Shown piece by piece: positions 1 to 64,000 of a stretch of 64,000 bases of DNA. The stretch is taken from the NCBI GenBank assembly GCA_964035545.1, contig OZ037767.1, positions 7,208,707 to 7,272,706 of the forward strand, in the 5' to 3' direction. The stretch's first letter is position 1, and the number at the start of each line of letters is the position of its first letter. The notes under the pieces were generated by a model that was not told where the DNA came from, searched no databases, and was given only the letters and a program-made list of their open reading frames with translations. The DNA comes from Bugula neritina (Eukaryota; Animalia; Bryozoa). The translations under genes were made by a program, and so were the position numbers.

Positions 1-3000
1 TGCTCCTTCATCTCCCACCTGTTTATGAGCAGCTCATGTCTCAAGCTTTCAGGTTAGTATAGTTCATTACTTTGGCATCTGTGCTTGACTTGCTGTGAAT
101 ATGTATAGTGTTACCAGAAAGTGGCAGTGTTACCAGAAAGTAATTGTGTTACCAGAAAGTAATAGTGTTGCCAGAAAATGATAGTGTTATCAGAAAGTGC
201 TAGTGCTACAAGAAAGTGTTAGTGTTACCAGAAAGTAATAGTGTTACCAGAAAGTGGTCCCTTTATTTGTCTCTATGCAAACTCACGTTAAGAATTGTTT
301 GAATGAAAATAACTAATGATTACTTTAACATCACTTTGATTTTTCTAATTTGAGTTTATCTTGTGTTATGTGTTACTTTATTCTAACAAAGTTATATAAT
401 ATAATATATTGTGTGTTACTTAATACTCATAGAGATATATAATATAATATAATATGTAATGTAATATACCTGAGTTCTCATCACAGGTGTCTGATCTGCT
501 GCAAGGGGTTCCCCACATCCTACCACCACAAGCACCACCATCTCACAACTCACACCGATGAGTCATACACACCAGCAGTGCTCGTAGGCTTCAGCAGCAA
601 CGAGCTGCGGCAGCTGTGGGGCACCCAGGAGTACGCCAAAATGGTATTAGCTGATTGGTCAGTTAACATGACAGCTCCTATGAGAGGTATGCAAGTTCTT
701 AATTTGTTCACTGGTGGTGGTGCGTGTGTAGCCATGTGGAAAGTTGGTCACATGCAAAGGTTAACCAGATCAGCACAATAAATGTATACTAGTACATATA
801 ATATGAACACTGTAGATTAGCTTACACATGATCTAATATAATATGTCGCTGGAGTTGTCTACACATGTACAAAATGTGTTTTACATGTAATCGTGTATGT
901 AATGGTGAATAAATTACTTATTCTCAACATGGAAATTGTAATATTTATTGGTTAGTTAGCTTTTTATATGAACTTTTTGATCACTTTGTGTCCATATTTT
1001 CCCTTGTATCCACAGAAGTATTGTTGATATTGTAGAGGCCGTAGCAGACTACAGTCACTTCTGTACTGATGAAGTCACTCTGTCTACTCCAATCCCTCCA
1101 TCATCTCCTCTTCCTACTGCTGTATGCTGTCTGGAGACTGAAGGCAGCTGCCAAACCACTGCTGACCCGACTCAGTTGAATGCAGAGTCAGCGAGTGTAG
1201 AAAAGACAACTCCCTCGATGTACTCCAACAGTGTAATATCTAACATCCATATGGATGAGGGAGTAGAGCAGAGTATATTCTACGCCGGACCAGATCTGCC
1301 AGCTGTGCAAGGTGATTGCTATACACTACCATTAAAAATCTGATGCAAGTTTATAGTCACTATCCCTGTGAGAACCTCTGATGGAAAGTGGGCTAAGGAC
1401 TTATTCATATGTGGCACAGAAGCAATTATGACTGGAGGCTTTTCCTAACATCACCAATGGTCTTTCCTGGGGTTCAAACCCATAACTTAGCCAAACACTA
1501 TAACCGCTAGACCACGGCTGCTCTCTACAATATACTCCCATTGACCATAGGCTAGCAAATTTATCACTGTGAGTTAGTCTGCACTTGTTTTATTAATAGA
1601 AGTGTACAAAAATTACGGCTGGCGGTGGTTTCTCTTTCACTAATGAACAGACAACTTCTCTATTATAAAACCAATTATTCTACCCCGTGGTTTACTGTTC
1701 CATTAAGCTACGTTATGCACGAGCCTATATTATTTTGCAATGAATTTCTATCATATTGTTGAAACTTTTGAAATTTGTTTCTAATTAACAATGTACATCT
1801 TTTTGACTCTATAAATAAACTAGTCATTTTATTTAGATCCTACGCCGTGTCAGCATGACTCAGATGGTGAAGATAAGAAGACATGTTTGGAGGAAGCTGC
1901 CGACACCATGCCTGTGCAACTCCTTGCTGCTGTGAAAGGGAAGAGTGTCTCTGTCCCCTTTGCCTACATATGCTGGTACTGTGGCCGGCCCTTTGTGGGT
2001 CGCAGTGTGTTCTACCTACACCTGCTTCAGGAATTGCTGGCTATGCCAGGTAAGTTTTACCTAGACCTGGGGCAGGTGTTACGGGCTGTACCAGGTAGGT
2101 TGTATTGTCTCTTACACACATTCAAAACACTTGTTATGGATATTTTATGGCAAACAACAGTACAGTTCGGTTTCTGTTTGGTTATTGATGTTGCAGTGCT
2201 CAGAATTATGCAATTCTAAAATGTGTTAGAGCAAATTGCTACCAAATGCCTTAGAAGACTAACAGTTAATATATTTTGGAAGCTTGTAAGAAGCCCCTTT
2301 AGTGCAACTGTACGGTGAAAGTAAACCAACTCTATGCATTTTATGTTATCAGCTCATTGCTGCTGGGCAGCATTGTGTTTAATTTCAATTGTTATGAATA
2401 GATGCAAAGTTCTGTTGTATGCAAGACGATGGTAACATGTGACATGCTGTGTATATTTAGCCAGGGGAGTCTTGGGCGGATGTGAGTTCGGGGGTGTGGA
2501 GGACACAGCCCATTGTGGTGTCTGTAACACAGATGTAGAAGTGTGTGGCCTAGAACAACATCTCTCTTATCATCACTCTTCTGAAGAGGTCAAGGTAAAG
2601 GGCAGATATTACCGAGTAATAGTCGGTGGTGCCAGTCTTAATGATGGGACAATTTTCTAGTTTAGTAAATAGAGGTAATAGATGTGTGTTGTAGTGTGTT
2701 GTAGTGTGTAGTAGTGGTGGCGGTGGTGGCGGTAGTAATAGTGGTAGCAGTGGTAGTGGTAACACTGTGTAGTAGTAAGAAAGAACAATAGAATGATTAC
2801 TGACTGCAGGGGAGTAGACGCTACAGTGGAGAAGTAGCACAGTTTCTCATGTAATAGTAAACTATTTGGACTCAGTGTTTTTTCTATCATAAAAATACAA
2901 TTGCTCTGATATAATTCTAGGATGGTGGTGCAGAAGATAACTATTCTAAAAAAGAGAAGCAATGCCCTCACATGTGTTGTACTGACGTCTTTTCTCATTG

Positions 3001-6000
3001 GTCAGACCTTGGCAATCATGTGATCAACACACACACTCCCCAGCATATGAAGTCTCTAATAAGACACAGATGTACGGCATGCAAGGAGGTCTTCCTAAGT
3101 TACTACCACGCTAGAAGTCATTGGGAGCAAAATGCAAAGACTTGTGGGACAGGTAAGGAACTTCCTGAAAATTTATACACAATAATTCTTATTATGGTTG
3201 ATAATATTTCTTTGTTCTTGTAGAAGCTTTAGTCACACAACGCTCAAGGACAGTTATATGATTCTTCATTTAGCATATTTCTACTGTGATGTTATTACTC
3301 ATTGTTTCTAGAAAGATCTTGTTAGTACCAGAGACCTCCAATGCAATTTCACAACATGCGGTTAAAGTTAATATTCTTGGCAGAGACCTGTTTTCTCTCA
3401 ATACTCTCCTGTTCATTTTCAGCTCTGTTCAGCATATTGTTGACATCATTTTTATGCTTTTTGCATAATATTTAGAACAAAGATAAAAAAATTTAGGATT
3501 TTCAAACAATAAATTTATTGTTTGGAAATCCTAAATTTTTCTACTAGCTGTGCTTTTAGAATGTGAAATAGATTTGAATGCTCCTCACCCTCTGGGGTTT
3601 ACAAAGTCTTCTGTTATTTTTATAGGAGCTAAAGGTATCGCAGCTGAGAGTTTTGTTGCTCACAATCTGTCCCTGGACTACCTGACAGTGCACCACCTGT
3701 GTTCTCACGATTTCAATTTTACTAAGTATAAGAAGTTCACTTTCTGCTCAACATTCAAGACTTCTCGTAAGTCATGTGTTGCTAAGTGATGTGTTTTACT
3801 GTAACTCATGCGGTGCTAACTGAGATGTGACTCACTATAAGTCATGTAATACCGTAACTTTGATTGTCATTCATTGTGATATTTCAATTCTTGTGCAATT
3901 CTGGTGTAGTTGTAGCCTTGTATATAATTCACGTTATCTTATGATTTACATGCCTGCCAGGTGCAAGCATTATTACTGCTAGGTCTGGTTTTCTCTTTTA
4001 CTCTCCTCGTGATTTACGTGTTTGTTCTGGAATAAAAGGGTTTCATAGCCAAATTGTTGGAGTAATTTTATTTTTTTACAAAACAAATTGATCAGTTCGT
4101 CCTGCTAAGAAAGCAGTAAGCTGATAATTGGTCAATGGAAAACTGAAACACTAGTCAATGTACTTCTTTTTTTATTGATTCTGGAGCCAAAATTTTATTT
4201 CAAACTTATTAATTGTAATTATCTTAAACAAGTTAGTCAATAAGCATCCAAGTATATTATATCATCACTGTCCGATTTGAAAATATTATATGGTTTTTTA
4301 ATTCATCATTCTGATTTGTGATTAAGAAAGCTCTTGTTTGGTTTTGTACTTTGCATTTTTTCATGGCTTACAAAAGTACTTCTAGTGCTCCGGTTTTTAG
4401 CCAGGCTGACTGTGCAAATACCGCATGCCTATTAGATGTTACATCATTCCAATAATAGTCTTGTTACTTTTTCTTCCAGCACTTGTATTTCGTGTACTTT
4501 TTGCAGATTTTCTTTTATGTTTCGTGTGTCAAAGACTGTTTTGCACTGATGCTAAGGATTTGGAGAAAGCCTCTTTGGACGAGGCTGTAGAGAGCTTACA
4601 GCAAACCCTCTCTGACCACTTGCGTGCATCTCATCAAATAACATTGACCACAGGCTATGAGTCACCTCCCCTTCCCTATAGTGTCTCTGACAAAGAAGAT
4701 GGTAAACTTAATTACCTTCTGACATGCAATATGTGTAGCATATTCGACTCTGTATAGTATACTCTACTCTGTAAAGTATTCTCTACTCTGTATAGTATAT
4801 TATACTCTGTATAGTATACTCTACTATGTATATTATACTCTACTATGTATAGTATACTCTACTCTGTATATTATACTCTACTCTATATAGTATATTATAC
4901 TCTGTATAGTATGCTCTACTCTGTATAATATACTCTACTATGTATAGTATATTCTACTCTATATAGTATATTCTACTCTGTATAATGTACTCTACTCTGT
5001 ATATTATACTCTGCTCTGTATAGTATATTCTACTCTATATAGTATATTCTACTCTGTATAGTATATTCTACTCTATATAGTATATTCTACTCTGTATAAT
5101 GTACTCTACTCTGTATATTATACTCTACTCTGTATAGTATATTCTACTCTATATAGTATATTCTACTCTGTATAGTATATTCTACTCTATATAGTATATT
5201 CTACTCTGTATAATGTACTCTACTCTGTATATTATACTCTGCTCTGTATAGTTTACTCTACTCTGTATAGTATATTCTACTCTGTATAGTATATTCTACT
5301 CTGTAGAGTATACTCTACTCCGTATAGTATACTCTACTCTGTATAGTATATTCTACTCTATATAGTATATTCTACTCTGTATAATGTACTCTACTCTGTA
5401 TATTATACTCTGCTCTGTATAGTTTACTCTACTCTGTATAGTATATTCTACTCTGTATAGTATATTCTACTCTGTATAGTATATTCTACTCTATATAGTA
5501 TATTCTACTCTGTATAGTATATTCTACTCTATATAGTATATTCTACTCTGTATAATGTACTCTACTCTGTATATTATACTCTGCTCTGTATAGTTTACTC
5601 TACTCTGTATAGTATATTCTACTCTGTATAGTATATTATACTCTGTATAGTATATTCTACTCTATATAGTATACTCTACTCTATATAGTATACTCTACTC
5701 TGTATAGTATACTCTACTCTGTATAGTATATTCTACTCTGTATAGTATATTCTACTCTGTATAGTATATTCTACTCTGTATAGTATACTCTACTCTGTAT
5801 AGTATACTCTACTCTGTATAATATACTCTACTCTATATAGTATATTCTACTCTGTATAATGTACTCTACTATACAAGAGTTTTCACTTGCAGATGGGATG
5901 TACGACCATGCCACAGATGTTGAAGAGGAAGCTGCTAAAGTAATTGAGAAGCCGGCCCCTGGAAGTACCTCTGAGCTATTAGCGCCGATCAAATGTGAAC

Positions 6001-9000
6001 AAAAAGATCCGGGTAAAGACAACTCCCCAGTTACTCCTGCTCTTGTTAGTCTTCTTAAAAAGTCATCTGATGAGCGCGTAAATAGGACTTCCTCTAAAGT
6101 GAAAAAACACAAAGCTAAAAAGTCAACGATTGATGAAAATTCTTTAGTTAATTCCTCTGCCACTACCAGGTCTGATGGCAATTCACTGGAGTCGTCTGAT
6201 ACTACTTATTGCGGCATTCATTCAAACCATAAATACTCAGTCCGTTTGCCAAAATATTGCCTGAGATGTAAGAAGATTAAAGACTGGATTGAGTTGATGG
6301 GTTGGCAAAAACAGTATTCGTTTACAATGAATTTTGCTATGCGTAGGACAAAGAGGCATTGTAAGGTGCACGCTAAAGGAATAGTAGCCATGCACTGCCG
6401 CCACAGGCACCTCAGTTATTGCATAGAGTGCTCAGAGGTTGCAAAGCCAGTCAAATTACAGCCAAACTATTACTGTGACACTCATGGCCCTATTTACAAA
6501 GCTGTTTATTCAAAGCCAATATGTGCTGTTTGTGAAACAAAGCTTAAACCATATCCAACAGATCGAAAACCTGCTCCTGAGGTTAAGCCAGGAAATCTAG
6601 AAACATCGAGTAAATCTGAGAAATTAAAGGTCATTTCAGCAGCTGAGCAGACTGTAAAAACTTCTGAATCCATTAAAAAAACACCAACCAACTGGCAGCT
6701 AAAGGGTGCAATTCTGACATCTCTCAAGTGCAAAATACACCAGACGGTGTCACTGCATTTGTGTGAAGATGTCAACTCCATGCAGATGTTGATATGTCGC
6801 AAGTGCCGGGTTTTAGGCTACACATTTTCCTCTCTCCCTGGCCAAATTGCGCTCCGAATTCTGCCCAGCGAAAACTGTGAGTCACACCCTGAATCTGCAG
6901 TACACGCTGTCGCAGGTAGCGATGCCAAGTTTTGCAGCTCATGCGCCTCCGCCAAACTGAACACAGACGTGTTCTGCAGATTCCACACCGATGCAGTCTT
7001 GGTGTACAATTCGTGTGGCAAGGTCGTTGCAGCTTGTGGCACGTGCAGAGATTTCCCATTTGAACTAAAACCTGAGGGGTCGTGTGTGATGCAGCCCAAT
7101 AGTCGGCTGTTTTGTGGTATACACCCTGACTCCACCATTACAATGGCCTCTGCTGAACAATTCTACTGTAACAGCTGTCGGCAAGGTGCCACGACCTCTA
7201 CCCCACCGCTGCCTGAAGTGCCAACATCAACTAGCGCATCTACTTCGGGTAATATTCCTTCTGATATTTCCAAACAGGATCTGGCCTTGTGTTACAGTCT
7301 CTTTCAGCAAAAGGAAGCCTCCATGGAGGGTATTGAGTCGGCAACTATCTGTAAAGTACAAAATACGCCGTCAGACGACCAGAAATGTGGTTATATTGAG
7401 GACTCTGGTCGCTTAATGAATGTGAAACTTCATTCAGTTGAAAGAGTTGATACTTCCGTAACACCCTCCGACAGTAAAATGGCCGATACTGAAGAAACCC
7501 ATTCTCCGCAGAAAGGTAAGTAGCAGTGTTTAACCTATAAACATCTGTATACAACGGCAGCCATATTTGATCTATATTGTACCAGATAACATTGCTACAG
7601 CACTTTTGACAACTCTTTGTATATGAAGATTCTAACAAATAAGTCACTAAAGTTACAAATGCAGAGTCATGAGTTAATTTATTTACACAATAAAGTATTT
7701 CAATGATATTTGTTTTTTTTTAGTTTGTGAGATGAAATGGAAACCTGGGCAGTGTTTACCTTGCATGTATTGCTCCGATACACTCAATTCTTTTAAAAAG
7801 TACAAACATCATCTTAAGAAAAAACATGCTGCTTCTAAAATTCCTCCTGTTTATGCCTGTTCCAAGTGTCGATTCATCACACTCTTTGAGATGCAGTTTG
7901 AGGAGCATGCCCAGATGCACGGAAGGAAGGATGTACACATGTGTCCAGTTTGTGACTACCTAACACTCAAGGTTGAACAGATGACTAAACATTTGCGATA
8001 TAAATGCCGAATTAAAGGTGATGCCTCAATTGTAGCCAGACGATGCAGTGAATGCAACTTTGTTGCTTGGAGTTCCAAGGCGTTTGATGAACATCGGGCT
8101 ACGCATCTTGTGAGAGACTCGAGTAAAACAAGTCCTAGCAAAAAGTTGTGCTTAGAGAAAAATTCATCTCCGCCAGAATCTAGTGCGGCTATACCAGCTA
8201 AAGCTGACCAAGGCAAGGCAAAGTGGAGAATTGGTCATAAGTACTATTGCAGGCTATCAAAGCAGTGCGGCCATGCTAGTTCCTCACAGCTGGATCACAA
8301 AAATCACGTGAAAAAGAAACATCCAGGGGAAGTAGCGCGCAAGCTGATTCCGTGTAACATCTGCTACTTCGTCTCTGACCGTGTTGCTGCCGCCGAGAAG
8401 CACCGAGTCCTGCACGCTGACTCAGGCAGCATCCAGTGTACTTCCTGTTTCAGTCTATCGTCCAACGCGGACCTTCACGCTACTCATCTCAGATATTGTC
8501 CTTCTCAGAGAAAGTTAAACCGCAGTAAGTGTAAACTTTTATTGATATAAATTTTTTGCTTCGGCGTATCAACATAACTGCACAATAATACCTCTTATTT
8601 GATTGGCTGTTACAGGTTCTTCAAAACAACAAGAGTTCCGTGAAGGTCAGGTGTATTCATGCAGGTTATGTGACAAGTTGGTCTCAAATTACTCTGAGTA
8701 TTGCCAACATTATAACGAGCATCACCCAGACCAGAGGAAGATGCGGCTGTTCCCTTGTCCACAGTGTAACTACGTGGCCGACCAGAAGACAACTCTAGTG
8801 GAACATATGCGGCTGCACACTCTCCCTGACACTATTGAGTGCACGCGCTGTCATCTACTCGCTCTTCCAAGAGGGTATGGTTTACGCATCCATTTAAGAA
8901 AGAGTTGGTGTGGAAAGTACGTGAAACCTCCTCCTTTGCCTACAAAACCTACACAATCTGGTAAGTACTGCTGGTTAGCACACTGGGGTAATACCACAAT

Positions 9001-12000
9001 AGTTAATATAATTTGACACGCGTATGCCCCAGCTGTACTCAAGCAAGTTTATAGTCACCATCCCTGTGAGAAACCCTGATGGAAGGGGTGTTTTTTAAAG
9101 AGGGCTAAGGACTTATTAAGATGAGGCACAGGAGCAATTAAGACTGGATGCTCTTCCTAACATCACCAATGGCCTTTGTCAGGGCTCGAACCTTTGACTG
9201 TGCTTACTAGGCAAACGCTCTAACCCCTAGAGTCTAGACCACGGCTGCTCCTTGCTGCATCCCTCGACTATAGCTGCAGTGCTATTGAGTCATAGAGCCT
9301 TGTCATTATTGTCTGTTCAATGTGTTTTCTCCTTTCACTTTTGACCAAGTGTAGGGCCACACGACGCGTTTTACACGAGCGTGACGTGCGAGAAATCCCA
9401 TTAGAATCCACGCTAGTGACCTGCCACACACAGCGCGTTTGTTGCGAGTGCAAAAATTTATTACCTAATGATGTTAGCATTGAAATTTACTGCTCGCCTA
9501 CAGACGTTTATTTTTAAACTACATCATTGACAAAGTGATTTGGATATTATAAAAGCGGAAATGCAAACTATATAAAACTGTTTTAATTCAGCTTGCTAGA
9601 AGTTAAATCGTAAATCAAAATAAAAAAATGTGCTCGCTAAATATTACATGGTAATAAGCCAATTAGATCAAACACGCACAAGCGTGTCACACTTCTCGCT
9701 CAGCATGTTAGACGATTGAAAATCTGTACGCAACGTCTAATTTTTGGGCTAAATGAGATTTCTCGCACGTCACGCTTGTGTAAAACGCGTCGTGTGGCCC
9801 TACACTAAGTATAACAAAACAAACTGTTAGGGCAGCACTATGGATGTTATTAACTAAACCAGCACTATCTATTCAATGACCCCCTCAAAATGGTGGACTG
9901 CAATTTCTGATTATTGTTTGTACTGTTTCTAGTCTGAAGAAAAGGAAATCTACATAAAATTTTATCTTTATCGTGCTAGCCGCGTCCATGTTTTATTGCA
10001 TGAATACAACTCTGTCTATCTAAGAGATCAACTCTATAATATGATATATTACGTATATTGCAGTATATTGCATGTATTAGGCTATATTACTGTATATTAT
10101 GTGTATTACTGTATACTGCGTATATTACTGTATATATATTGCGTATATTATGCATTTTACTATATATTACCTTATACCTATCACGTGTATTACTAAATAT
10201 TTACTGTATATTGTGTGTATTACTGATGCGTAAATTCTGCCTTTTCAAGATGACCCGAAGAGATGTTTATGGAGGAAAAAGCACATCTACCAGTGTAGAC
10301 ACTGTCAGAGTAAGATCACCTCTAGACATGACTATAAAATTCATATGAAGACGATGCATCCACACGAGCCAGTCAAGGTCATATATCCCTGTAATCAGTG
10401 TAACTTCATTACTGACCAGTCACTCTTGCTCAACTTGCACCAAGACAAGCACACGCCGCAGGGCACCTACACGTGCAAACTGTGTAATAAGTCTTTGACC
10501 AACAGAATACAGTGGGTGCTACATAAAAAGAGGTGCAAAGAGTTGCAAAGCGGAGCTGAAGAATCTGGTATGTGTAATCTAAAATACTAACTTACTTTAA
10601 ATATGAGAAACTGTGAAACAAAGCAAAACTGTTTTTGATGTGCTTTTGCTTACACAATAAATTTACTGTTGCGAGTGAAAATAAACAGATGTATGTCGAC
10701 ATATACACAGCGAAACAGTTTGTCTCTCATAATAGTGGGGTGAAGTGTCAGTATTTTAAATATCCCTCGTCTAACTGTTCACCTTTCATTATGACATTTA
10801 TGATGCCTCTTAAAGCTAGTTTTCTTAACTCAAGAATATGCCAGCATATGTTTTCCATTTTTACTTTTTGTATTGTATATTATTGTTACTTGGTTTACTT
10901 TGTCTCGAAACGATGAAATGACAATTTTCTTTGTTGTGTGTTTCAGGGGTTTCGGCCAATAGCAATCCTGTTGATTCACAGGTGTGGACGAAGGGGCACA
11001 AGTTCTTTTGCCGCCATTGCGATTCTCTCCTGGCTACAAGTGATGAGTATACTGAGCACATGACGTTCAGTCACAAGGATGAGGAGTTGCGAACTCTCTA
11101 CCCCTGCTCCAGATGCAGTCATGTGACTGATGATGCTCACTACGCAGCCCACACACAGTGCCATGTCACCGGTGAGAAACTCACCTGCAGCAGGTGCTTC
11201 TTCATTTGCCAAGATGAAGCTGCCCTTTTGCAGCACCAGAAGAGATGTTTGAAGGGAGAACCTGACTCTCTAAAAGGTTCTAGCAACCTGGATGCAGCAT
11301 CTATGGAGATCAACTCTACTGAGAGTTTACCAGAACAGGAGAAAACTGATGCAGTGCCATCTGTTGAAGTATCAGCAACTCAGTGTGAAAGTTCTGCTGA
11401 TCAACAAGAGGGAGAGTTGATAGCAGCTGTGGACAAGAAGGAACTTCTCTCAGAGAACCAGAACCTAGCTGGAGAAGACACCAATCTACAACCAACACCA
11501 AATGCAACCCCCACCATCTCTCCTGATACTCAAGAGAAACCGGATAGTTCTGTAAGGTTGCAGGAAGCATCTGTAGCTGGTAAAACTGTCACCTCTGAAC
11601 ATGTGGTGGTTCCACCTACTTCTGCTGAAGCAGCTAATGAAAACGTCATCTCTGAACATGTGGTGGTTCCACCTACTTCTGCTGAAACAGCTAATGAAAG
11701 CGTCACCTCTGAACGTGTGGTGGTTCCACCTACTTCTGCTGAAGTGGATGGTAGCGCTAACCCTACCGTGAACGTGAAAAAAAATCTCTCACAAGGTAAT
11801 TCTCATTTATTGCAATTTGGCTGCATTATTGTTTTAGGAGTCTCTTACAAATATTTAAGATTTAATGAAGTTTGTGCTATACTCTTTCATTTGTGAGATG
11901 ACTCTATTGCAATTTAATGATGATCTATTCTCTGTAAGCTATTTTATATTGTTATTGTGTGTCAGTGGTAAACTTTGCATATCAATTTCCAAGTTACTTT

Positions 12001-15000
12001 GATCCCTACTGTTGATTTTTTTGTGCAACCATATATTTATTTATTTATTTTATATTACTAGCCTCTAATGTTCCCATGTTCTTCAGACAGTTGTCAAATT
12101 TTGCTGATTTTATTGAATGTTTATTTCTGTAGTTTCAGAGAAGAGGGTTGACCATACATTCTACTGCCGATACTGCTATTACGTCATCTCAGATCTGGCC
12201 GACTATAAGTCTCACATGGCAAAGAAACACGCAGACAAATACTGCAGTGGGGTGGTGCATTATTGCCCAAAATGCCGTTTTGTTACCGATTTACCCCAAA
12301 ACTATAAACACCACATGGCCCGCCACAACGTGCATGAGTCACTCAGATGTGACGTCTGCTACTACTTGGCTCCATCCCAAATGTCTCTCAGAAAACACTT
12401 TCAATCTTTCTGCTGTCCTGCTGCTAAAATTGCTGCCGATTCTAAAATTTTGGTTGTTCGGAATGTAAGATCCAAATCTCAGCTGAATGTAACCGAGAGC
12501 CAGTCAGATGGAGGGCGTACCAGTGTCTCTGAAGGTACTTCTACGTTTTCTTTCTAAACAGTTTTGTAAATAAATGATGTCATGTCCTACTCATGTAGCA
12601 AGTAATAACTCTAAGTATATAGCATTACTCTCAACAATCTAGATAATTGTTATCACAGTCTGTAAATACTTGTGTTGTGTTTTCACATATTATGTAACAG
12701 TGACTAAGACAACTTCAAGTGTATATTTTAGACAATCTTAGACAATCTCCTACATTTCAACAGGTTTGGGATGTCATAAAGAAACTATTGGAAAGTCGTC
12801 TGATACTCTGAAAGCTGAGAAACCTGATATTATTGATGACAGCCGCAGCGTAGCTCCAGCTTCTAGTAACAACTTTTCTGAGCCAGAGACTGGTGATGAT
12901 GTGGAGAGTGGGGACAAACCTTCTGGGAGAATGTCTAGTGTAAATCAGGTTGATCAGTCAAGTATGGAGGTGGGTGTGACAGAGAGAGCACGTGATGTTA
13001 ATGTAGATTCTGGTGAGGTCTGTAAAGATACGTCTGCCGGATTGCCTTCTGGGTTAGAGGATGTATCCCCTTCATCAAAGATAGATTCTCTCCAAACGCC
13101 ACGCGTAGACTCTGATAGCAAACCATCTAAAGCACCTGCTCACGGAGATTATCAGAAAGTGAGTGATGAACAGGTGTCTGGAGCATTGATTGATGCGGAC
13201 AAGAGCCTATGCACCAACACACAACCTGAAAGTTGCCAGCTAGATATAGTGATTAAAGATGAGGATATTCTGGTCTGCGAAGTACCAGATGTTAAGGCTG
13301 ATTCCCGTCACACTTCTGATAATGAGGATGGGGTGCGGAGGGTACGTCGCTCTACCAGGTCGAGCAGCAGCAACAATGCCCTGGCTAGAAAAAGTAACTC
13401 CACTACATCTCAACAAAGCTGTGAACTCAACCAGGTACAATCTGCTTCCTGTTATGACATCATCTGCTATTTGTTAGTAATTTTAGGCAGGGTATTCTAC
13501 ATACTTGCGGCAATCACCAAGTGCTAGTAATAAAATATATTACTTTGTATATTGTTAATATTATAACTCTATGCAGTTGTATGGTCTAATGTACTCACTA
13601 TATATGCATTAGATTAGACTTGTATTTATTTGCCAGCAAGTTGAAAACAGATGTACTGAAGTTTCAAATTTTGAAGTTCTTAATTTAGTATAAAGTAGTA
13701 CAACTAGTTTAGTACAGAATTTTCATAACGAGCTGTGTGGTTATTTGTGTTTATAGAGTCAAGTTAGAAAGACCAGATCGAAAACATCTCTTTCCAGCAC
13801 ATCTCTAGGCAACCGAGAAAGTTCAAAACCAAAAAAGCAAAGTAAAACCGAGAAATCAGGTGCCGCTAAGTCTAGTAAACAGAAGACGAAAACGTCTGCA
13901 ACTTCAAAATCTCCCGTGATAAAGACGGAGCCGAAGCATGAAAGTGGAGAATCTACTCTGAAATCTGATCCTCAAAAAGCGGCGAAATTAATTGAATATT
14001 CGAAGCAGTCAGCTCAGCTAGCTGCCACAGCTGCTGTACCAGTTGACGATGGCTCAGGCATAACGCTCAATGATGAGGTCTTCACTAAAAAACATAGTAT
14101 GACAATAGGTGACGTTAGCGGGGAAGCTGCGGTCCTTCTAGAAGGTGGGTTTTCTAGTATACTTATTTTGTTGCAAGAGTTTTGTTTTCAGAATTTTTTG
14201 TCATTGAAGTCCGATTTGAATGCTATTTATTTTAGGGTTCCGCAAGGGTGGTCTAACCAAACCAATGATTACTCAGTCTGTAATTTCTTTATCCTCCAAG
14301 AACTTAGCATGGGTTGGCAGGCACATAAAGTTGGAAAAATTAGCTGTTTCTATTCCAGTTGACAAAGGGCAGGATTACACTGCACTAGACCTTCCATGCA
14401 ACTTTTGTAATACTAAAGTAAGAGGCATGAAGGATATTTTGACTCATGGTTGTAAAAAAAGTGAGAACAAAGATGTATGCTACGTATGCGCAAAGGTGTT
14501 TCCCGGAGAAAATTACACAGATATTCATTTAGCATGTGTACATCTGGAGATACCGTATGACGAGTATGTTGAATGGCTGACTCTAGGAACAGATACCAAT
14601 CCTCATGTAATGTCAGCGGCAGAGCAATCACAGGAGCACAAGGATAGAGTTGCTGACCATAAATCAACTGTTCCCAATCTCTCCACAACCCCCCACCGTC
14701 TACCCACTCACATCAGGGTGAACGAGTCCCCACACGGTAAATTTGGTGAAACAGTTGATACGTCGTTAAATAAAAGCTTGGAAGAGGAAGCTCTTCCAAG
14801 TGATCAGCAACGTGATATATTCTCGCTGGAAGACCGTCGACAGTCTCGAACTTCTGATCATTCAAGTTGCCAGTCAAGGCCATCTCAGAGGCCATCTTCA
14901 GGTGAACAATATACTGATTCCAGGCATGTTAAGCGGAGAGTAGACAAATCCGAACCACATCTTGAATATAGAAGTCACAAATATTCCAGACAGTCACATT

Positions 15001-17065
15001 CAACTGGTGGTAATAGTGATTACAGAAGAATTAAAAGTAATGATGGTAGATGCTCAGGTTAGTAAACTGTAGAAAAATTAGTTGTGTGATATTTGCGTAT
15101 TGAAAAATAAACGTTATAAACAGTCGCTGAACTGCAGAGCACCCCGACTCTGCTCGTGCGAGACATTTATGCAAAAACTTACTTGTAATAAAAGGCGTGT
15201 TTTAAAACTAAATCTACTCATTTTTATGTTTTGTTAATTTATCTCCCCTTGCATGTTTTTTGCTCACTGATATCCGAAGCTCTTTTCAAGCAACAGAAAA
15301 CTCATGCTTATGCCTGGTGCTTCAGTTTTTGTTGAGATATATAAAGATTGGGATGATTTTTAAATACTGCTGCTGTAGTGAGTGAATGACTTGTGGCTGT
15401 TTGACATTGTCCAGCCTATCTGTCACACCAAAAAGTAAAACCATACACTAGAAATTGTTTAAATGATTTGCTTACTTACATTTTGTAGTTAATCTTCAAG
15501 ATCATGGTTTCAAAATCTGATCATGATCATAAATTTCTAATCGCTGACAATGTGGTCTTCAGTAGTTTCGGAAACCTGTTTTAATTGCCCGTAAAGGCTC
15601 AAAACACTTTCTTGTACTTTTTCATGCCTCCGTAAAAATTAATCAAAAGCATTATTCAAACTATAGATACAGAGAAATGATGGCTTTAATGTATTTTATT
15701 TGTTGCTAATGAAATATTATATCTTTATGATATATTGTATATTTTCATTGCATTATTATTGGTATTTTAGAAAACAATTCACTAAAAGATCACCGAAAAC
15801 CTGCTGAAATTTCTCGGCGTGCTCAACAGGTAGCGGAACAGCATAGCTACAGATCTTCACGTCACTCTGATGATGATATCGGGGCAGGTAATAGGCCCAG
15901 ACTTCCAGCTTCACATTATCGTCACTACAGTCGCCATGATGATGTGGGGGCGTTTGACGAACACAGACGACCTGTTCCTCGTCGAATTCACCGTAGTCCT
16001 TTGGCAGATCAGAGAGAGTATGAAGAGCAAAGGTATCACGGTCACCGTGACGATTATAATGATGAGAAGTATATGCGGCATGCGCCTGCTTTTACAGAGC
16101 GTAGCTATTGGGCAAGGAATTATGGTGGCTATAGAGAGCGTAGGCAACATATTGAGCGTGATCGAGCTTCTGCACAACGTACTCATCATGATGCTAACTT
16201 TTCACATAAAATTCCTGATCGAAAAGGCAGCCCCTGGTCGACATATGATGTAGAACGATCTTCCCGTAAGACTGACAGTGAAAGTCAATTTGATTTAAAG
16301 CATGCGAGTAGCTATGTACACAAGACAGATGCAGATAGCATCAACCGTATCAAAAACCGATATCGATATAGTTACAGCAAAAATAAAGCTGGTTCTAGTA
16401 ACAGAAGAGGTTCTGGCAGGTCTCCCTCCCAGTCGCATGATCCTGAGCGAGATTTCAGTAAATCACAAAGAGGTTTGAAAGATAAAACAAGGGAGGAAAG
16501 TGATAGAAGTAAGACACACCATTTACGTGATGAAAAGACTTCCGGTCACGGGACTGTACCACATTCTGGTGGTCGCAAGAGTTCACATGAAGGCCATCAC
16601 CTACCGACTTTCCAGGAAAAGCATAGTACACAGAGTTCTAAAGATGACTTGAGAACTACAATGGATCATAGACACAGACCTGCACCTTCCCATTCCTCTC
16701 CGTGCAAGAGTGGACAGAACAGGGATGGAGACAGGAAAGACCTGAAGCTTTGCAGTAAATCCCAAAAAGAGGACAAAAATAGAAGTGACAGATTTATTGG
16801 CCGAACCGAAAGGCCTCGACAAAGTGAAGCTAAACATCAAGGAAGTCCTGGCATTAGTCCGACTAGTTCTGATAAACTCAAAGTGTCACCAATCAGCCAG
16901 TCCTCAGCTAGGAGCAAGCGTCCTCATTCCGACGATCAGCCTGACAAAAAACATAAACGGCGCCGTGAAAGCTCTCCTCATGGTCAGGAGTTTGTTATGA
17001 CTACTCATGATGGACAAATAGTTCGACTTAAACCATCTAAAGGAGGCACGCTTGAACTTGCTTGA
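1..17065 (+). CDS. Giant multi-zinc-finger protein (C2H2/C2HC fingers, CxxH..CxxC repeats, R/S/H/D-rich C-terminus); 5'-truncated by the window edge
   Basis: Hand-built GT-AG exons: <1-52, 487-630, 1016-1311, 1837-2049, 2461-2594, 2921-3152, 3626-3766, 4507-4701, 5893-7515, 7724-8524, 8616-8960, 10250-10567, 10947-11795, 12133-12534, 12764-13434, 13757-14144, 14236-15057, 15771-17065 (TGA). Phases join into one open frame (8921 nt, about 2,970 codons). Many C-x2-C-x12-H-x3/4-H fingers, e.g. CLICCKGFPTSYHHKHHHLTTH and CPQCNYVADQKTTLVEHMRLH. Individual small-exon boundaries are less certain than the overall gene. Confidence 0.85.
105..258. repeat. 19-bp minisatellite (TAGTGTTACCAGAAAGTAA-like, about 8 copies), intronic
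   Basis: Directly visible tandem units with a few substitutions. Confidence 0.9.
1346..1523 (-). mobile_element. tRNA-derived SINE, copy 1
   Basis: The minus strand begins GAGCAGCCGTGGTCTAGCGG (Pol III A-box TGGTCTAGCGG) and has a B-box-like GGTTTGAACCCC. Clearly homologous to copies at 9044-9250 and 52208-52395 (shared CAAGTTTATAGTCAC...GTGAGAA...GGGCTA.GGACTTATT...GGCACAG). Confidence 0.85.
3487..3540. repeat. 54-bp loopless palindrome (1 mismatch), intronic
   Basis: AAAAATTTAGGATTTTCAAACAATAAA|TTTATTGTTTGGAAATCCTAAATTTTT. Confidence 0.9.
4745..5872. repeat. About 1.1-kb 19-bp minisatellite (TAGTATATTCTACTCTGTA and variants) with higher-order structure
   Basis: Tandem 19-mers fill almost the whole intron. 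Variant units recur in the same order. Confidence 0.95.
9044..9250 (-). mobile_element. tRNA-derived SINE, copy 2
   Basis: Minus-strand A-box TGGTCTAG and B-box GGTTCGAGCCC. Homologous to 1346-1523 and 52208-52395. Confidence 0.85.
9349..9805. mobile_element. MITE with about 50-bp terminal inverted repeats, PIF/Harbinger-like
   Basis: Left GTGTAGGGCCACACGACGCGTTTTACACGAGCGTGACGTGCGAGAAATC and right GATTTCTCGCACGTCACGCTTGTGTAAAACGCGTCGTGTGGCCCTACAC. Flanks CAA/TAA fit a degenerate TWA target duplication. A second copy lies inverted at 54079-54520. Confidence 0.9.
10040..10225. repeat. Degenerate AT-rich simple repeat (TATTACTGTATA-like)
   Basis: Low-complexity tandem motifs upstream of the exon at 10250. 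Confidence 0.7.
11587..11744 (+). repeat. Coding tandem repeat: 57-bp / 19-aa unit (VTSEHVVVPPTSAE.ANE.) x about 2.8 within a zinc-finger gene exon
   Basis: TCTGAACATGTGGTGGTTCCACCTACTTCTGCTGAA recurs three times, nearly identical at the DNA level. Confidence 0.9.
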
Positions 17066-57891: not shown

Positions 57892-58329
57892 TCAGTCATC
57901 ATTAGATCTCTGTGTAGCATCACCAGATGTGCGAGCAGCTGGTTTTGGGTATGACATCATTTCCGATGTGACCTGTTCCCAAGAATCGCTGCTTCCAATA
58001 GAACTGCGAGAGTCGGTACGCCCGAACCTCCTACTGCCTCTATATTCACTGTAAACATTGTCTAATGCTTCGTGAGAGTTATGGTTCCTTGGCATTGGAG
58101 TTATCCTGTCATCAGAATATACAGATTGACCATCTTCTCTTTGACTTTCTGTACACGAAGACTGGTAGTCATCTCTTTCCTCGTCAGATTGCACAGACCT
58201 CTCATCTACTCTCTGTTCTGGAACATCTTCCTCTCCACTCTCACTCTCAGTAGTACTCGGACTGGATTCATACCTCCTCATTGTAGTGTCGATGAACTCC
58301 GGGTCAGCAAATGAACTGGCATCCAACAC
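57892..58329 (-). CDS. Terminal coding exon of an unidentified host gene (acidic, Ser-rich, probably disordered C-terminus)
   Basis: A 145-codon open frame begins right after a minus-strand acceptor (TTTCTAG|GTG at 58330/58329) and ends in TGA. Composition is host-like. Upstream exons must lie beyond the Polinton insertion. Confidence 0.7.
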   Translation of the reverse strand: MLDASSFADPEFIDTTMRRYESSPSTTESESGEEDVPEQRVDERSVQSDEERDDYQSSCTESQREDGQSVYSDDRITPMPRNHNSHEALDNVYSEYRGSRRFGRTDSRSSIGSSDSWEQVTSEMMSYPKPAARTSGDATQRSNDD

Positions 58330-58641
58330 CTAGAAATTTTCAGTTATGAGCAAGTTAGCTAATTCTGATTATATCTCTTGTTTATGTAACTATAGCCATT
58401 CCTATATCAATTATTTATGCTGATAACTAAAAGATTTGCATTAAGCCAAAACTGAACACACAAACATAGCATGTAACATGGACAATATAACATAAAAAAG
58501 TATAACACATGACATACTGTATAAAATATAACATATAGCGCATATAACATACACCATGTGCCATATACTGCATATAACATATATCATATAACATAGAACA
58601 TAATGCATAATACATATAACATATACCCTACAACATCTAAC

Positions 58642-58742
58642 AGTAGTAGAGGGTGGATGGTCCTGGGACAACCCTTCCCCCGTCGAGTCTTCGACTCTCC
58701 GGTGTCAGGGATTGTCCCAGGACGCATCCACCCTCTACTACT
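58642..58742. repeat. Terminal fold-back hairpin (101 nt) at the Polinton end
   Basis: AGTAGTAGAGGGTGGATG-GTCCTGGGACAA-CCCT pairs with AGGGATTGTCCCAGGACGCATCCACCCTCTACTACT (34 bp, two bulged bases on the inner arm). The apex contains GAGTC-TTC-GACTC. Confidence 0.92.
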
Positions 58743-58830
58743 CTATTAATATTTTTATTAATTTTTTAGTATTAATTTTAAAAAATGTATTTTTTTTTTA
58801 CTATTTTTATTTTTTATTATTAGTAATAGA

Positions 58831-58867
58831 AATAAATTATTATACGCTGAGAATATAATAATTTATT
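58831..58867 (-). terminator. Perfect 14-bp AT-rich hairpin downstream of the Polinton gene cassette (candidate 3'-end/termination signal)
   Basis: AATAAATTATTATA-CGCTGAGAA-TATAATAATTTATT, about 100 nt after the last stop codon. It contains AATAAA in both orientations. Function is inferred. Confidence 0.45.
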
Positions 58868-58968
58868 ATCAATAGCGTTTAAATGTTATAACTCGAAAAT
58901 GTTGGTAAAGATTTAGTAGATTTGGTTATATTTTCATTATTTGTTGATAATATAGGTATAATAATGTT

Positions 58969-59493
58969 TTAATTAGTTATACTATTATAATAAAGTTTAA
59001 AATATACGTAGATAAAAGGTAATGCTGAGGTGGTTATTTCGCTAGTGGGAGTGTCAATTAAAATTACGTTATCGGGTTTATGACTCGGATAATCACTCGA
59101 AAGAGCTATTGTAAATGAAAAATTATTATTAGCGTTAACAATTTTATTAATATTTATTTTACTATACGGAACATTATGTTCGGCACCGCTAATAGTATAA
59201 AATAAATTTTCTTTAGATTCATCAAAAGGATTTACGCTATTACGAATATGTAAACCTATTTTTTTATCGGTCCAATATAACGCTCTTTTTTTAGCCCAAG
59301 TAAAACGGTCACCATAAAATTGTATTAACGCGTGCGTTATTTTAATTGGTTTATCTACTAAATAATCGTTAATTAAATCTACCGTAAAACTATTAATATT
59401 TTCGTAATAATAAAATCTACTGAAGCCAATAAAACCTGAAATAAATGCTTTATTAGTCGTTATATCAACTTTACTAAATTTATAGATATTCAT
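58969..59493 (-). CDS. Polinton ORFan, 174 aa (paralog of 59490-60023)
   Basis: Intact ORF with an ATGA overlap with the upstream ORF. Shares LIQFY, LYWTDK, ISGAEHNVP, HKP.N.IL.DTP.SEIT..ALPF.YV..KLYYN with its neighbour. Confidence 0.85.
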   Translation of the reverse strand: MNIYKFSKVDITTNKAFISGFIGFSRFYYYENINSFTVDLINDYLVDKPIKITHALIQFYGDRFTWAKKRALYWTDKKIGLHIRNSVNPFDESKENLFYTISGAEHNVPYSKININKIVNANNNFSFTIALSSDYPSHKPDNVILIDTPTSEITTSALPFIYVYFKLYYNSITN

Positions 59494-60023
59494 TTATAAT
59501 TATAATAAAGTTTTATTAATACGTAATGAAAAGGCAATGCCGCATCGGTTATTTCACTAGCGGGAGTATCGGTTAAAATAATGTTGCTGGGTTTATGATT
59601 AGGATAAGTTTTTGATAATGTCATTGTTAATAAAAAATTTTTATTAGCTTCAATAATTTTATTAACGTTTATTTCGCTAAACGGAACATTATGCTCAGCA
59701 CCGCTTATATCATAATAAAAAATATTTTCAACGGCTTCATCACGTTTAAATGTGTTAGCACTATCTCTAATTTCTAAGCTTACTCGTTTATCAGTCCAAT
59801 AAAGTTCTTTAGTATTATGAGCTTGTTCACGGTAAAATTGTATTAATATATTCGTTATTTCAATTGGTTCATCGACTAAAAAATCTCTAATTAATATTCC
59901 CTCAAAATTGTCAAGTCTACCATTAAATAAAAAATATGACGGAATTATAATATCCGTAATATACGGTTTTTCATTTATTATATTAGCCTTAGCCGAATTT
60001 CCAAAAATATAAACTGAACTCAT
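59490..60023 (-). CDS. Polinton ORFan, 177 aa (paralog of 58969-59493)
   Basis: Intact ORF whose ATG directly follows the protease TAA. Clear paralogy to the next ORF. Confidence 0.85.
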   Translation of the reverse strand: MSSVYIFGNSAKANIINEKPYITDIIIPSYFLFNGRLDNFEGILIRDFLVDEPIEITNILIQFYREQAHNTKELYWTDKRVSLEIRDSANTFKRDEAVENIFYYDISGAEHNVPFSEINVNKIIEANKNFLLTMTLSKTYPNHKPSNIILTDTPASEITDAALPFHYVLIKLYYNYK

Positions 60024-60425
60024 TTATATTAGTAATTTATTTATAATTAATTGAGGCGTTTCATGTTTAGACATTTTTTTAAGCCAATATAAACACAAGT
60101 GTCCGCATATAACTGTATCGAATTTTTGTACTTGTTCCGTATTATAAAATATAGGCGGTTTTAAATATTTCATTATTTCTAAAGGAGGATGTAATCCAAA
60201 ACTATCGAAATAATATTTTTTATTTCCATTTTTATACCAAGCTACCCAATGAGTACCGTTACCCATTAAATCGTCTAAATTTAATATACCACATTCTTTT
60301 TTACGTGGCTTAATGGGTAAATTATTTCTTGAGAATACTCCTCTAAAATTAGGAATTTTTAATTTTTTAATAGCAAACTCTAATTCAATATTTGATAAAG
60401 CTTTATTCTTTAACTTTATACTCAT
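60024..60425 (-). CDS. Adenain/Ulp1-like cysteine protease (Polinton PRO, capsid maturation protease)
   Basis: Catalytic motifs GTHWVA (His), YFDSFG (Asp), Q-x6-CGHLC (oxyanion Gln and Cys); FRGVFSRNNLP N-terminal motif. Confidence 0.93.
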   Translation of the reverse strand: MSIKLKNKALSNIELEFAIKKLKIPNFRGVFSRNNLPIKPRKKECGILNLDDLMGNGTHWVAWYKNGNKKYYFDSFGLHPPLEIMKYLKPPIFYNTEQVQKFDTVICGHLCLYWLKKMSKHETPQLIINKLLI

Positions 60426-63400
60426 TTATTATAACCGTAAGGAACCGTTGTTATACCGTCTTCTAGTATTATTCTTTTATCGTCTTCGGATGATAACGCC
60501 ACTTTATTTATAGTCTCAGCGTACATCGTATGCTTATGACTTCTTAAAACATTCATCATTCTAAGCTGATCTCGTCGCGTTAATAAACACTCTTTATAAT
60601 CGTTAAATGTTATACGATTATTACGAGTAATTTTATTAATACCCTTACACTTTTTTTCTTCAATTTCATCCATTTTGTAAGAGTATAATTTGGCTCTTAA
60701 TCCGACAAATTCAGTAATCTGCTTGCCACCGGCTTCATCCTTAAACTTCCCTATTACTTTTTTATTCTTATTATTTAATAATTTATGATTTTTAGGATAA
60801 TTACTCGTATCAAATTTATTTTCAATATCCGGTAATATATCCTCGTAAAAGTTTTCAGTTTTTATGTGATACATTAAGCTATCCGTATCCGTAAACAGTA
60901 ATTGAGCCTTATTACCGTATTTCGGTTTAATATACTCGTAATGGAAGTCGTACATAAGAATTTTACTAATATCCAAAATTGCCGCTCCCAAATATACGGG
61001 TTTATCAAACTTTAATTTAGTTACGTTCATATGAACCGCTACTAAATTTTCGGAAAATATAGTGAAGCTTTTAAAGTTAGGCTGATTAGTTAGCTTTTTA
61101 GCTTCGCTTTCGCTAGTAACTAACTTAATGTTAACTCTATTTCGTATATTTTCCATTGTTTTACCGAACACGGAATTGTTCATTAGCTTAAAGAAATCTT
61201 TTTCAAAATCACTCTTAGCTAAAGTTCTTAGTTCGGTATTTAATTTTATATATTTTTCTAACTTATTCGATTCGTTAAAGGTTATACCTCTATGAATCTT
61301 CGTTAACTTAATTCCGTACATAAGACATTGTTCCAACGCTTTATAGTGTATAACGTAATTCCTTTTATTATTTAAATTTGGAACTAGTTTTTCCACTTTA
61401 TTAACCGTTAATCTCTCGGGACAGAACGGATAATCTTTATGCGAGCCGTGCAACTTTTGCGAATATTCTAAATCCACTTCTAAGAAGCTAGGCGGGAAAA
61501 ATTTATTTTTCTCTAACTCTTTGCACCGCTTTTCAGTCATCCACTTAAAATTACCTACGGGCAAATTTTTGGACATAGCCCACCCGTATAAGTTATTAGC
61601 GTCCAAATAAGTGATATAACTGCTAGGTTCGCTAGCGTTATAATTTTCCATGTACTTATTATTGGCTTTAGCGTATCTATGACTGATCATACTTACACCG
61701 CCCCTAATAGCCTTTTCAAAGAAGAGTAATTGGTCAACATCGGTAATTGGGTCTAGCTCTAATTTAGTGGTTTTAAGCATAGCGTCCCAACTTAAACCCG
61801 GAGCTGTATAATACCAAACGGGATCCAATTTATAATGTTTAAGACACACGTTTCTAAAGTTTTCAAAAACGTCGGCTAGCTGTAACACGTCGACTTCCAT
61901 ATACAAGTCGTGATATTCTCTAAACGTTTTTATATTAAATTCTTTCCAAACGTTTTGAGCGTGTTCGTAATCCTCGTCCGATATATTACTCTCGGTTAGA
62001 CTCGAGTAAAATTCTTCTTTAGGCGGTAAACATTTTTCATCCAATACGTTTATATTGTTAAAATAATTGTACGGAAATACTCCTTTTCTTAATACTTAGT
62101 CTAATTGTCTCCCCTTAAAATGTTCGCTCAAGTGTTTAAAGTCGTCGCGTTTTAAATTCGCTACTAAACTCGCTAAACTAGAACTCATAAATTTATACGA
62201 GTCTAAAAAGCGAATTTCACGCGTAACTTTAACTTTTTTACCTTTATTATTGGTAAATTCGTCTACTAATAATTTTTTACTAAAAGATATATATTTTTCT
62301 TCGGTATTAGGTATACACGAAGGTTCACCGCCTAAGTTTTTAATAAACAAGTGAGCGTCGTAACCCGATAAATTATGAATAAATATTGGATAAAATTTTG
62401 GAATTTTATAATTTAAGTTGCAATGTTCGTGCGCAGCTCCTCTATAATTTTTGGTTAAGTGACAATGATCTCTTACTCTGTCATTACCCAATTTTTCTTC
62501 GCATATATGACAAATTTCAGCCAACTCGAAAGACTCTTGTTCGCTAGCCGAAATTTCCATTGGTTTAGGAAATTTATGTTTTTTATACAAGTTTTTAATG
62601 TCGAGTTCTAATAATCTCATAAATAGTTCACCAATATCTTCGTCTTCGTATTGCTTAGTATAACTTCTGTACTCGCACTCGCCGGTAACGCTCACGATAT
62701 AATATCCAAAACCCGACGGTTCGTGTTGCTGATATTGGTTAGTATAGCTTTTCTGAGAATTAGGCTGACAACTTTGTATAGGCTTAGTAAAACATTCAAA
62801 GTCCGCGTATACCGTGAATGGTACTCTCATACTACGGCAATGGTGACTAGACTGAAATTTTATTTTATTTTTTATTTTCGGAAAGACCGTAGTTACACCG
62901 TTATTTGATAAACACCAATCTTGATGCTTTTTTAAAGATTCGTTAGATCGAAACGAATTCATACAATTTACGCAAATATGTTTAGCGCTAACGCGTTTAT
63001 TTATTTGCGAACCGAGTAATTTATTTAAATTTTTAATATAAGCGTAATGACTCTTTTTGTCGTCGCTTATATAAAATAAATTTATAATTTTACCCTGATT
63101 TTTAGTTTTTTTCCATAAATTTATTGTTTTACCGTCCCACGTAAATACATTAATTCCGAAATTGGAATTAACCTCTTCAAAAGCGTCAATAGATTTTTTA
63201 GTAGCGGGAAATTCAACGCCTTCCCACAAAACTTTATTAACGTATTCTTTATAATTATTAATTCTTTCGGGATGGTTTTTAGGTGTATGAACACTCATTA
63301 AAATGGCCCACATAAAGCACTTATTATCCTCATTTTTAGGATTTATTACGGCTTTCTTTAATTTAATTTCTTTCGGAAGATCAATCCACGATGATCCGTT

Positions 63401-64000
63401 AAGAGGTTGATATTTATTAATATTAATTTCCATTTTTTTAATGGCTTTAAACATCCAGCTACTTCCTTTCGCGTTTAACGAAGCAAAATTTTCTTTTATA
63501 CGTTCAATTATTTCATCGTATATTTCATTAATATTCGTAGATTCTAATATAGTTTCAATATTTGATGTAAATGGCATAATTTCTACAATAGTTTCTCCGG
63601 TACGTACATTAATTTTTTCCATTTCGCAATACATAAATATTTTAACTTTTATAGTAGGTTTTAATAATTCTATTACATTTAATTTTACTAGTTTACTAAA
63701 TGAATTTATATCGTATTTGGGTAAACCCTTAATTTCATAAGTTTGAAACCAACCTTTAGCGGCTTGTTCTTTAAGCTTAGGCTGATTATATAAAGCCATA
63801 ATTTTATCCTTAATTGGATTTACAATTTTTGCAATTGGCTTTACAATACCCTTAACCCATTTTTTTATATTACGCGTAGTTTGTGTAAATATTTCTCGCA
63901 TAATTTTTTTTGCGGGTGTAGGTATTAACGGGGCTTGTCCTATATTCGGAACGGGTTCGTCCATAGGCGATAATAGCCGTATAAGTTCGGCTTTTCCTAA
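60422..64000 (-). pseudogene. polB: Protein-primed family B DNA polymerase (pPolB) with N-terminal TP/vOTU, C2HC finger and EndoVII-like insert; interrupted by one in-frame TAA at 62096-62098; N-terminus beyond the window
   Basis: ORFs 62096-63964 and 60422-62044 are in the same frame, joined by LD*VLRKGVFPYNYF. Exo I VYADFEC, Exo II HNLSGYDAHL, Exo III YMEVDVLQLADVFENFR; Pol A YLDANNLYGWAM, Pol B KLMNNSVFGKTMEN, Pol C FTDTDSL. The frame stays open to 64000 (LGKAELIRLLSPMDEPVP). Confidence 0.9.

Follow-up and report, generated by a model that had tools for sequence, protein, structure and literature searches.

The right end of the window, by which we mean the whole 64,000-nt stretch of Bugula neritina DNA that was analyzed, holds one end of a Polinton/Maverick element joined to host DNA. 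The element starts at position 58642 and extends past the window end at 64000. Two hallmarks of Polintons/Mavericks were found here: the (AGT)2 terminal motif lies at the host junction, and the motifs of a protein-primed family B DNA polymerase are visible in a window ORF. The features of this part of the window are as follows:

58636..58641, plus strand: six bases of host DNA preceding the tip, possibly the left copy of a 6-bp TSD (from the sequence)
58642..58742, no strand assigned: terminal fold-back with AGTAGT at both ends (fold, 18-mer count, and contigs starting exactly at 58642, 4 of the 16 listed)
58642..58659, plus strand: outer arm of a perfect 18-bp stem, which pairs with 58725-58742 and starts with the canonical (AGT)2 (fold; motif per PMC8097293)
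58672..58710, minus strand: asymmetric core (six G·A oppositions on the minus strand; sister contig alignments)
58711..58724, plus strand: inner-arm segment with bulged bases 58711 and 58724 (fold; contig variant tables)
58743..58968, plus strand: AT-rich interior spacer, 15% GC (composition; first 6 to about 30 nt common to sister families)
58969..60023, minus strand: two tandem paralogous ORFs of 174 and 177 aa, 54% identical (ORFs, comparison)
60024..60425, minus strand: ORF of 133 aa, putative adenain-like cysteine protease (weak PF00770 match, E 6.8e-4, 19.8 bits, below the curated cut-off of 21.3)
60422..63964, minus strand: protein-primed DNA polymerase of probable pPolB2/Beta type, in two ORFs (62096-63964 and 60422-61900), with the frame open to the window end (homologs)
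62417..62512, minus strand: EndoVII/DHHRN-type nuclease motif inside the polymerase (CxxC, DHCH, R, HxxCN; motif residues)

The polymerase was identified through its homologs, 1432 proteins of 1090-3110 aa at E<=1e-3, the best of them 80% identical. The upstream piece is 80% identical to P0001, an intact 1252-aa homolog, and among the best 120 homologs the one that carries an organism name comes from a coral. Pfam gave no match for either of the two polymerase pieces, and the split near 62096 could stem from decay or from a sequencing indel. Since it carries the inserted nuclease motif, the polymerase was placed, by sequence, with the pPolB2/Beta-type Polinton group. In 28 of 38 relatives, the polymerase is preceded by a Rho_N-like domain, which may bind nucleic-acid ends; the part of the window equivalent to this region begins at the right edge. 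No Pfam family matched the 174- and 177-aa ORFs, and the best ESM Atlas result for the 177-aa ORF (0.87) was uninformative. Elsewhere in the window, positions 5859-17065 hold a cluster of intronless ORFs of 146-554 aa, almost without Pfam matches except for one weak Spin-doc zinc finger match at 7732-8550. This cluster is possibly another mobile element.

The first 101 nt of the Polinton (58642-58742) form an imperfect palindrome that is predicted to fold into one rod. The outer part has 34 bp, consisting of 18 bp, a bulged G at 58724, 12 bp, a bulged A at 58711 and 4 bp. The rod continues inward with a 4x4 loop, 3 bp (CCG/CGG), a 2x2 loop, 5 bp and a 3-nt apex (GAGTC-TTC-GACTC). The plus strand of the hairpin has a folding energy of -41.8 kcal/mol, compared to -14.2 +/- 2.4 for shuffled sequences (z = -11.5), and none of 200 shuffles equaled it. 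The minus strand folds better, at -44.6 (z -11.3). The hairpin is 58% GC, versus 28% in the 200 nt before it and 15% in the 226 nt after it. The terminal 18-mer occurs exactly twice in the 64-kb window, head to head, where 0.02 occurrences are expected by chance, and AGTAGT is thus present at both ends of the fold-back. A preliminary description made from the sequence had reported this geometry, the GC-rich hairpin between AT-rich flanks and the duplicated end motif; refolding, composition and the 18-mer count agree with it on all three. It had also compared the segment to parvovirus and poxvirus termini, and an imperfect terminal fold-back with unpaired bases is indeed what 58642-58742 contains.

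The two strands of the hairpin are not equivalent. In the core, six oppositions depart from Watson-Crick pairing, and each of them is G·A on the minus strand, which has its 3' end at the tip. They form two tandem GA/GA steps and one isolated A·G, and the remaining G·A closes a C-GAA-G loop. Read on the plus strand, they become T·C. Both motifs, the tandem GA step and the C-GAA-G loop, have exceptional stability in DNA. By a rough, post hoc estimate, the chance of finding six of six G·A on one strand is 4e-5 to 1e-4. When the 39-nt core was folded alone, it was significant on the minus strand (z -2.3) and not on the plus strand (z -0.9). The better fold of the opposite strand and the G·A-only mismatches were missed in the preliminary description, and the strand asymmetry is new. 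Since an accidental fold-back is not expected to yield this strand pattern, the terminal hairpin very probably works as a single-stranded DNA structure.

Contigs containing part of the region came from five runs in two studies, and all were assembled contigs. Four runs were compared over 58000-64000 and two runs over 58610-58830. One 284-nt contig of run X5 extends over 58397-58680, from the host flank into the hairpin, and differs from the window at 0 positions. Since X5 is possibly the source sample, its contig counts against an assembly fold-back and not as a second individual. Together with contigs of both studies that span the asymmetric core into the interior, this independent contig excludes the assembly fold-back that the preliminary description had named as a way to be wrong. 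Summed contig depth in X5 cannot be read as copy number; it amounts to 73-82 in the host flank, to 2115-6593 in 58804-64000 and to about 7,500-13,000 in 58658-58753, with the step at the hairpin. Over 58642-58753, the summed depth is roughly two- to fourfold above that of the genes, in comparisons run at different thresholds. This excess could arise if each element contributes both of its ends, if there are non-autonomous copies ending in the hairpin, or if contigs overlap.

The comparison over 58610-58830 gave 132 contig pieces, 16 of them among those listed. An exact start at 58642 was seen in 4 of the 16 listed contigs, and two X4 contigs have about 100 unrelated letters before 58642 (agreement 0.57). 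To the right of the hairpin, the sisters have at least the next 6 nt in common. The six host bases at 58636-58641 have no direct repeat right after the hairpin. Because the left side is variable, the right side is common to the sisters, and there is no flanking duplication, we conclude that the hairpin is the end of an element and not a MITE. A free-standing MITE with its own TSD on both sides, unlinked to coding DNA, was a further possibility raised against the hairpin, and the differing flanks and common right side do not bear it out. Neither was the hairpin absent from sister copies: it is a true Polinton tip, kept in contigs of two studies.

Sister variants were read by eye from variant tables, which list only differences away from the ends of the pieces, and the sequences were not rebuilt. 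The sister alignments hold over 58675-58709; the left limit, beyond which they loosen, is 58672 or 58675, and the right limit is 58709, 58710 or 58717. No substitutions within 58678-58707 appear in the variant tables of the aligned sister contigs, a conservation that is partly built in, since contigs with a diverged core would not align. In the arms, three kinds of paired change were seen. In X5 record 12, where one contig covers both arms, 58672-58674 changed along with 58708-58710, and 58662 along with its partner 58721; an X4 contig carries right-arm changes matching this record. In both X4 and X5, a two-base insertion behind 58673 is paired with changes at 58709 on the other arm. Outer-stem positions 9, 10, 11 and 16 differ on both arms yet stay complementary. 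For the insertion and outer-stem families, two of the three kinds, the left and right records are not physically linked. Loss of the bulge at 58724 is shown by no listed contig (the indel table has no row at 58724). Beyond the hairpin, the sisters stay similar for another 6-30 nt, which weakly suggests that hardly any more TIR is available to form a panhandle. We consider this a real and conserved terminal hairpin on a pPolB2 Polinton, and probably a functional one.

Resolution of the AAV type or the poxvirus type predicts inverted forms of a terminal hairpin, and flip/flop isomers had been suggested for this end. An inverted copy is expected to betray itself in one of four ways: 58724 deleted on the side of the interior, an insertion after 58659, host letters hanging loose beyond 58742, or a joint at which the strand changes. 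The complete indel table (9 rows) contains no bulge-swapped indel, the contigs compared over 58610-58830 contain no strand-changing joint, and the 12 of 32 loose-end rows that were listed contain no loose host letters behind 58742. Contigs were oriented by flank or by interior. All 11 orientable contigs, of the 16 listed among 132, are in the window's orientation, one of them being this locus itself. The sensitivity of the test is limited in that flop-specific contigs could be about 40 nt, clipped or missed; at this sensitivity, the suggested isomers did not appear and AAV- or poxvirus-type inversion is disfavored. Some parvovirus left ends keep one orientation, and a single orientation also fits asymmetric resolution of the parvovirus type.

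The polymerase was said in the preliminary description to carry an endonuclease-VII-like domain, and such a motif is indeed present. It lies at 62417-62512, and the window protein has retained all of the catalytic residues D, H, H, R and N. The same residues are listed for T4 EndoVII and its family (PMC6083498). Among the best 120 polymerase homologs, 116 have the motif, and in every one of these 116 one zinc cysteine is replaced by H. The residue three places after the motif N, a putative counterpart of T4 E65, is never E in the 116, and this was given no weight. Of 38 aligned relatives, 37 match PF02945 at E<=0.01; the match of P0001 is confined to profile positions 4-61 of 82 and falls below the cut-off. 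A looser form of the motif is present in 17 of 22 IMG/VR loci, a count that leaves out L005, a duplicate of the contig of L016. In sequence searches of the PDB with the nuclease motif, no solved EndoVII chain was matched. The motif was reported in 2018 in 15 Caenorhabditis PolB proteins, in or beside the resolvase clade and with function unknown, and the window polymerase has the same insertion; the motif also serves homing and restriction enzymes (PMC6083498). Nematode Polintons with and without a nuclease-bearing polymerase have highly conserved TIRs in common (bioRxiv 10.1101/2023.08.22.554363). The passages on the EndoVII-type domain of pPolB2 in these two sources make no link to termini, and the word 'endonuclease' has 0 occurrences in the adintovirus preprint (10.1101/697771). 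With a motif that is clade-wide, was already known from Caenorhabditis and is found in nematode elements whose TIRs are common to elements without it, the special link between domain and hairpin drawn in the preliminary description is not supported. Judged by its residues, the EndoVII-like domain is a plausible enzyme, and nothing ties it to the hairpin. The hairpin offers a concrete candidate substrate for the pPolB2 nuclease domain, whose function is called unknown in the relevant passages of the literature.

Terminal palindromes are known from related elements. In Halocafeteria seosinensis, endogenous virophages (subtypes 1, 2, 5 and 6) and PLV subtype 4 have them at their TIR tips, and a preprint of July 2026 compares them to parvoviruses and poxviruses and puts forward a hairpin-priming model as a proposal (bioRxiv 10.64898/2026.07.28.741278). 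As in the window, an integrated Polinton-class element carries the palindrome at its extreme end, where host DNA adjoins it. The Halocafeteria elements are from a protist and have mostly non-pPolB replicases, with 52 nt in the figured case, whereas the window has a pPolB2 Polinton with AGTAGT ends and an imperfect palindrome of 101 nt. The strand-specific G·A pairs, the paired arm changes and the single orientation are not mentioned in the relevant passages of the preprint, and its supplements could list pPolB-bearing cases. Outside those supplements, Kapitonov and Jurka 2006, Pritham 2007 and Repbase, literature searches together with term look-ups in PMC11296320, PMC11131425, PMC12220804, 10.1101/697771 and 10.64898/2026.10.13.758929 yielded no terminal hairpin on a pPolB Polinton, no G·A strand bias and no resolvase role for the nuclease domain. 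The novelty claimed for hairpin-ended replication is therefore reduced: terminal palindromes and the hairpin-priming model were already in the 2026 preprint, and what stands is that none was found for pPolB Polintons. Fold-back tips were previously known mainly from protist virophages and PLVs without a protein-primed polymerase, and here one is present on a pPolB2 Polinton with canonical ends, in an animal genome.

Other systems bear comparison. Canonical Polinton/Maverick TIRs with (AGT)2//(ACT)2 ends (PMC8097293) resemble the window in end motif, in polymerase and putative protease genes and in multicopy insertion. In contrast to them, the window has the motif repeated head to head 100 nt inside, so that the end can pair locally; the word 'hairpin' is absent from PMC8097293. 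Parvovirus and poxvirus termini share with the window an imperfect fold-back of about 100 nt with unpaired bases at a genome end. The window differs from them in that Rep/NS1 and a telomere resolvase are absent from the part of the element it contains, no flip/flop was seen, and the end continues into host DNA as an open duplex. Bidnaviruses, which are pPolB-parvovirus hybrids, are described as being without terminal hairpins in the section on them in PMC4061559. Streptomyces telomeres have GNA loops closed by sheared G:A in their 3' overhangs, which are likely nuclease-resistant, with terminal-protein priming on 3' hairpins and fold-back repair of lost end bases (PMC5449611). The window resembles this Tpg/Tap end patching in its 3' strand, which is predicted to fold, and in its candidate GNA loop with sheared G:A, and under the reading favored below it would also share terminal-protein priming and fold-back repair; this is an analogy and not a homology. 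The Streptomyces system, as described there, is bacterial, has several short palindromes and an internal origin, and uses the primase Tap and not a B-family polymerase.

We tentatively favor a reading that we rate at somewhat under an even chance, in which the 3' end of the displaced strand folds back to make a local duplex, and protein priming starts the second strand there. The polymerase would copy from one end, displacing a single strand. The 101 nt at the 3' end of this strand would then collapse into a stiff rod, held by sheared G·A pairs and a GAA mini-loop and also protected against single-strand nucleases. As the second-strand origin, the rod would take the place of the long end-to-end panhandle of the textbook model, with the AGT repeat available for jumping back. 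The orientation would never invert, because the hairpin would be copied and not cut and transferred, and the fold could serve as a template for repair of an eroded tip. The EndoVII-like domain would not be needed. A local origin of this kind would explain why the end motif is present a second time, why the strands are biased and why one orientation is seen. The (AGT)2 repeat has been linked to jumping-back protein priming (PMC8097293), and the motif is retained at the window tip. The restart of Polintons on a displaced strand is itself a model, the end-to-end 'racket', and not an observation. If a local origin is correct, Polintons and Streptomyces arrived independently at telomeres with a folded 3' end. 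Short oligonucleotides can be used to probe the question, since the folding strand is defined, the mismatches are all G·A, the bulge is kept and a single orientation has been observed.

The weak point of protein priming on the local duplex is that the same fold offers a 3'-OH primer, whose extension is the geometric default and would need blocking. Self-priming is unlikely in our view. Here the folded 3'-OH would prime the second strand, and a nick or cruciform cleavage would reopen the covalently closed end, asymmetrically enough to leave one orientation; the EndoVII-like domain may be the enzyme. It stays a live rival, since the fold-back sets a paired 3'-OH beside the template. In the predicted fold that 3' end is perfectly paired, hairpin priming has been proposed for Halocafeteria (bioRxiv 10.64898/2026.07.28.741278), the catalytic residues of the nuclease motif are intact, and the persistent asymmetric bulge could direct a one-sided nick. 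The listed contigs contain no inverted form, however, and the AGT jumping-back repeat is kept. A resolving role for the domain is further weakened by its presence in 116 of 120 homologs and in homing and restriction enzymes, by the partial, below-cut-off PF02945 match of P0001, and by the TIRs that nematode elements with and without the motif have in common.

It is also unlikely, and we rank it behind self-priming, that the hairpin is not an origin but a protective cap or a recognition signal (for single-strand excision, the integrase, the packaging ATPase or the Rho_N-like domain), with replication from duplex ends. The G·A-rich GNA hairpins of Streptomyces are proposed to be nuclease-resistant and neighboring palindromes bind Tap (PMC5449611). 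In the Polinton, the core sequence is better kept than the arms, and the Rho_N-like domain of the 28 relatives would be at hand. What this reading leaves unexplained is the second exact AGTAGT copy and the perfect 18-bp stem, which rebuild a duplex terminus. Quite unlikely is a hybrid route, in which the first strand would be protein-primed, the second would be primed by the G·A-stiffened hairpin, and the closed end would be reopened by the polymerase's own nuclease domain through an asymmetric nick in the bulged inner arm, so that one orientation alone results, on which the integrase could act. One polypeptide would then, if this were true, combine the replicase with a telomere resolvase.

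We regard as improbable that the palindrome is a neutral by-product, an ancestral end that self-copied once by fold-back and was inherited and homogenized by occasional template switching. Arm-to-arm copying alone would give the paired changes, and accidental annealing is named as an alternative in the Halocafeteria preprint (bioRxiv 10.64898/2026.07.28.741278). Such copying would erase bulges and mismatches, however, and it gives no account of the six of six strand-specific G·A or of an unpaired core kept better than the arms. An assembly artefact or a free-standing MITE beside the Polinton, to which the raised depth over the hairpin and the possible existence of hairpin-ended non-autonomous copies might point, is very improbable and largely refuted already by the junction matched with 0 differences, the imperfect arms, the lack of a flanking duplication and sisters that vary on the left and agree on the right.

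Similar ends, and with them the other end of the element, were sought in several collections, and the other end did not turn up. A gapped end pattern of 10+10 nt had 0 matches in IMG/VR. An 8+8-nt pattern, with 9 of 64 parts of IMG/VR scanned, gave 121 loci, and none of the eight best folds was like the window end. One 8+8-nt match, L117 (z -7), was dropped, as its start resembles what we take to be the segment end of an unrelated RNA virus. An IMG/VR pattern that included the loop motif gave 30 of 30 weak folds, the best at -20.3 kcal/mol over 116 nt. All 8 metagenome matches to the terminal 18-mer were without a hairpin, the 23-nt core had 0 matches in prokaryote genomes, and the 10 Rfam matches were generic hairpins, all far below gathering scores. 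With P0001 as query against IMG/VR, 0 were confirmed. No AGTAGT-tipped hairpin was seen among 23 polymerase-related IMG/VR loci (22 contigs), whose tips are mostly unassembled. The only long TIR among these loci (1090 bp) belongs to L014:1-16929, a complete-looking 16.9-kb relative with the nuclease motif; its assembled ends, which may be truncated, have neither a fold-back nor the AGTAGT motif. Another of the IMG/VR loci, with a polymerase 43% identical, has a 184-nt fold-back of -63 kcal/mol (L003:4657-4840) between a protease-integrase ORF and the polymerase. It starts with TGAT and ends with ATCA, end motifs opposite in polarity to those of the window, and contains two inner tandem units. 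This fold-back could mark a place where element ends meet, or it could be an element inserted there.
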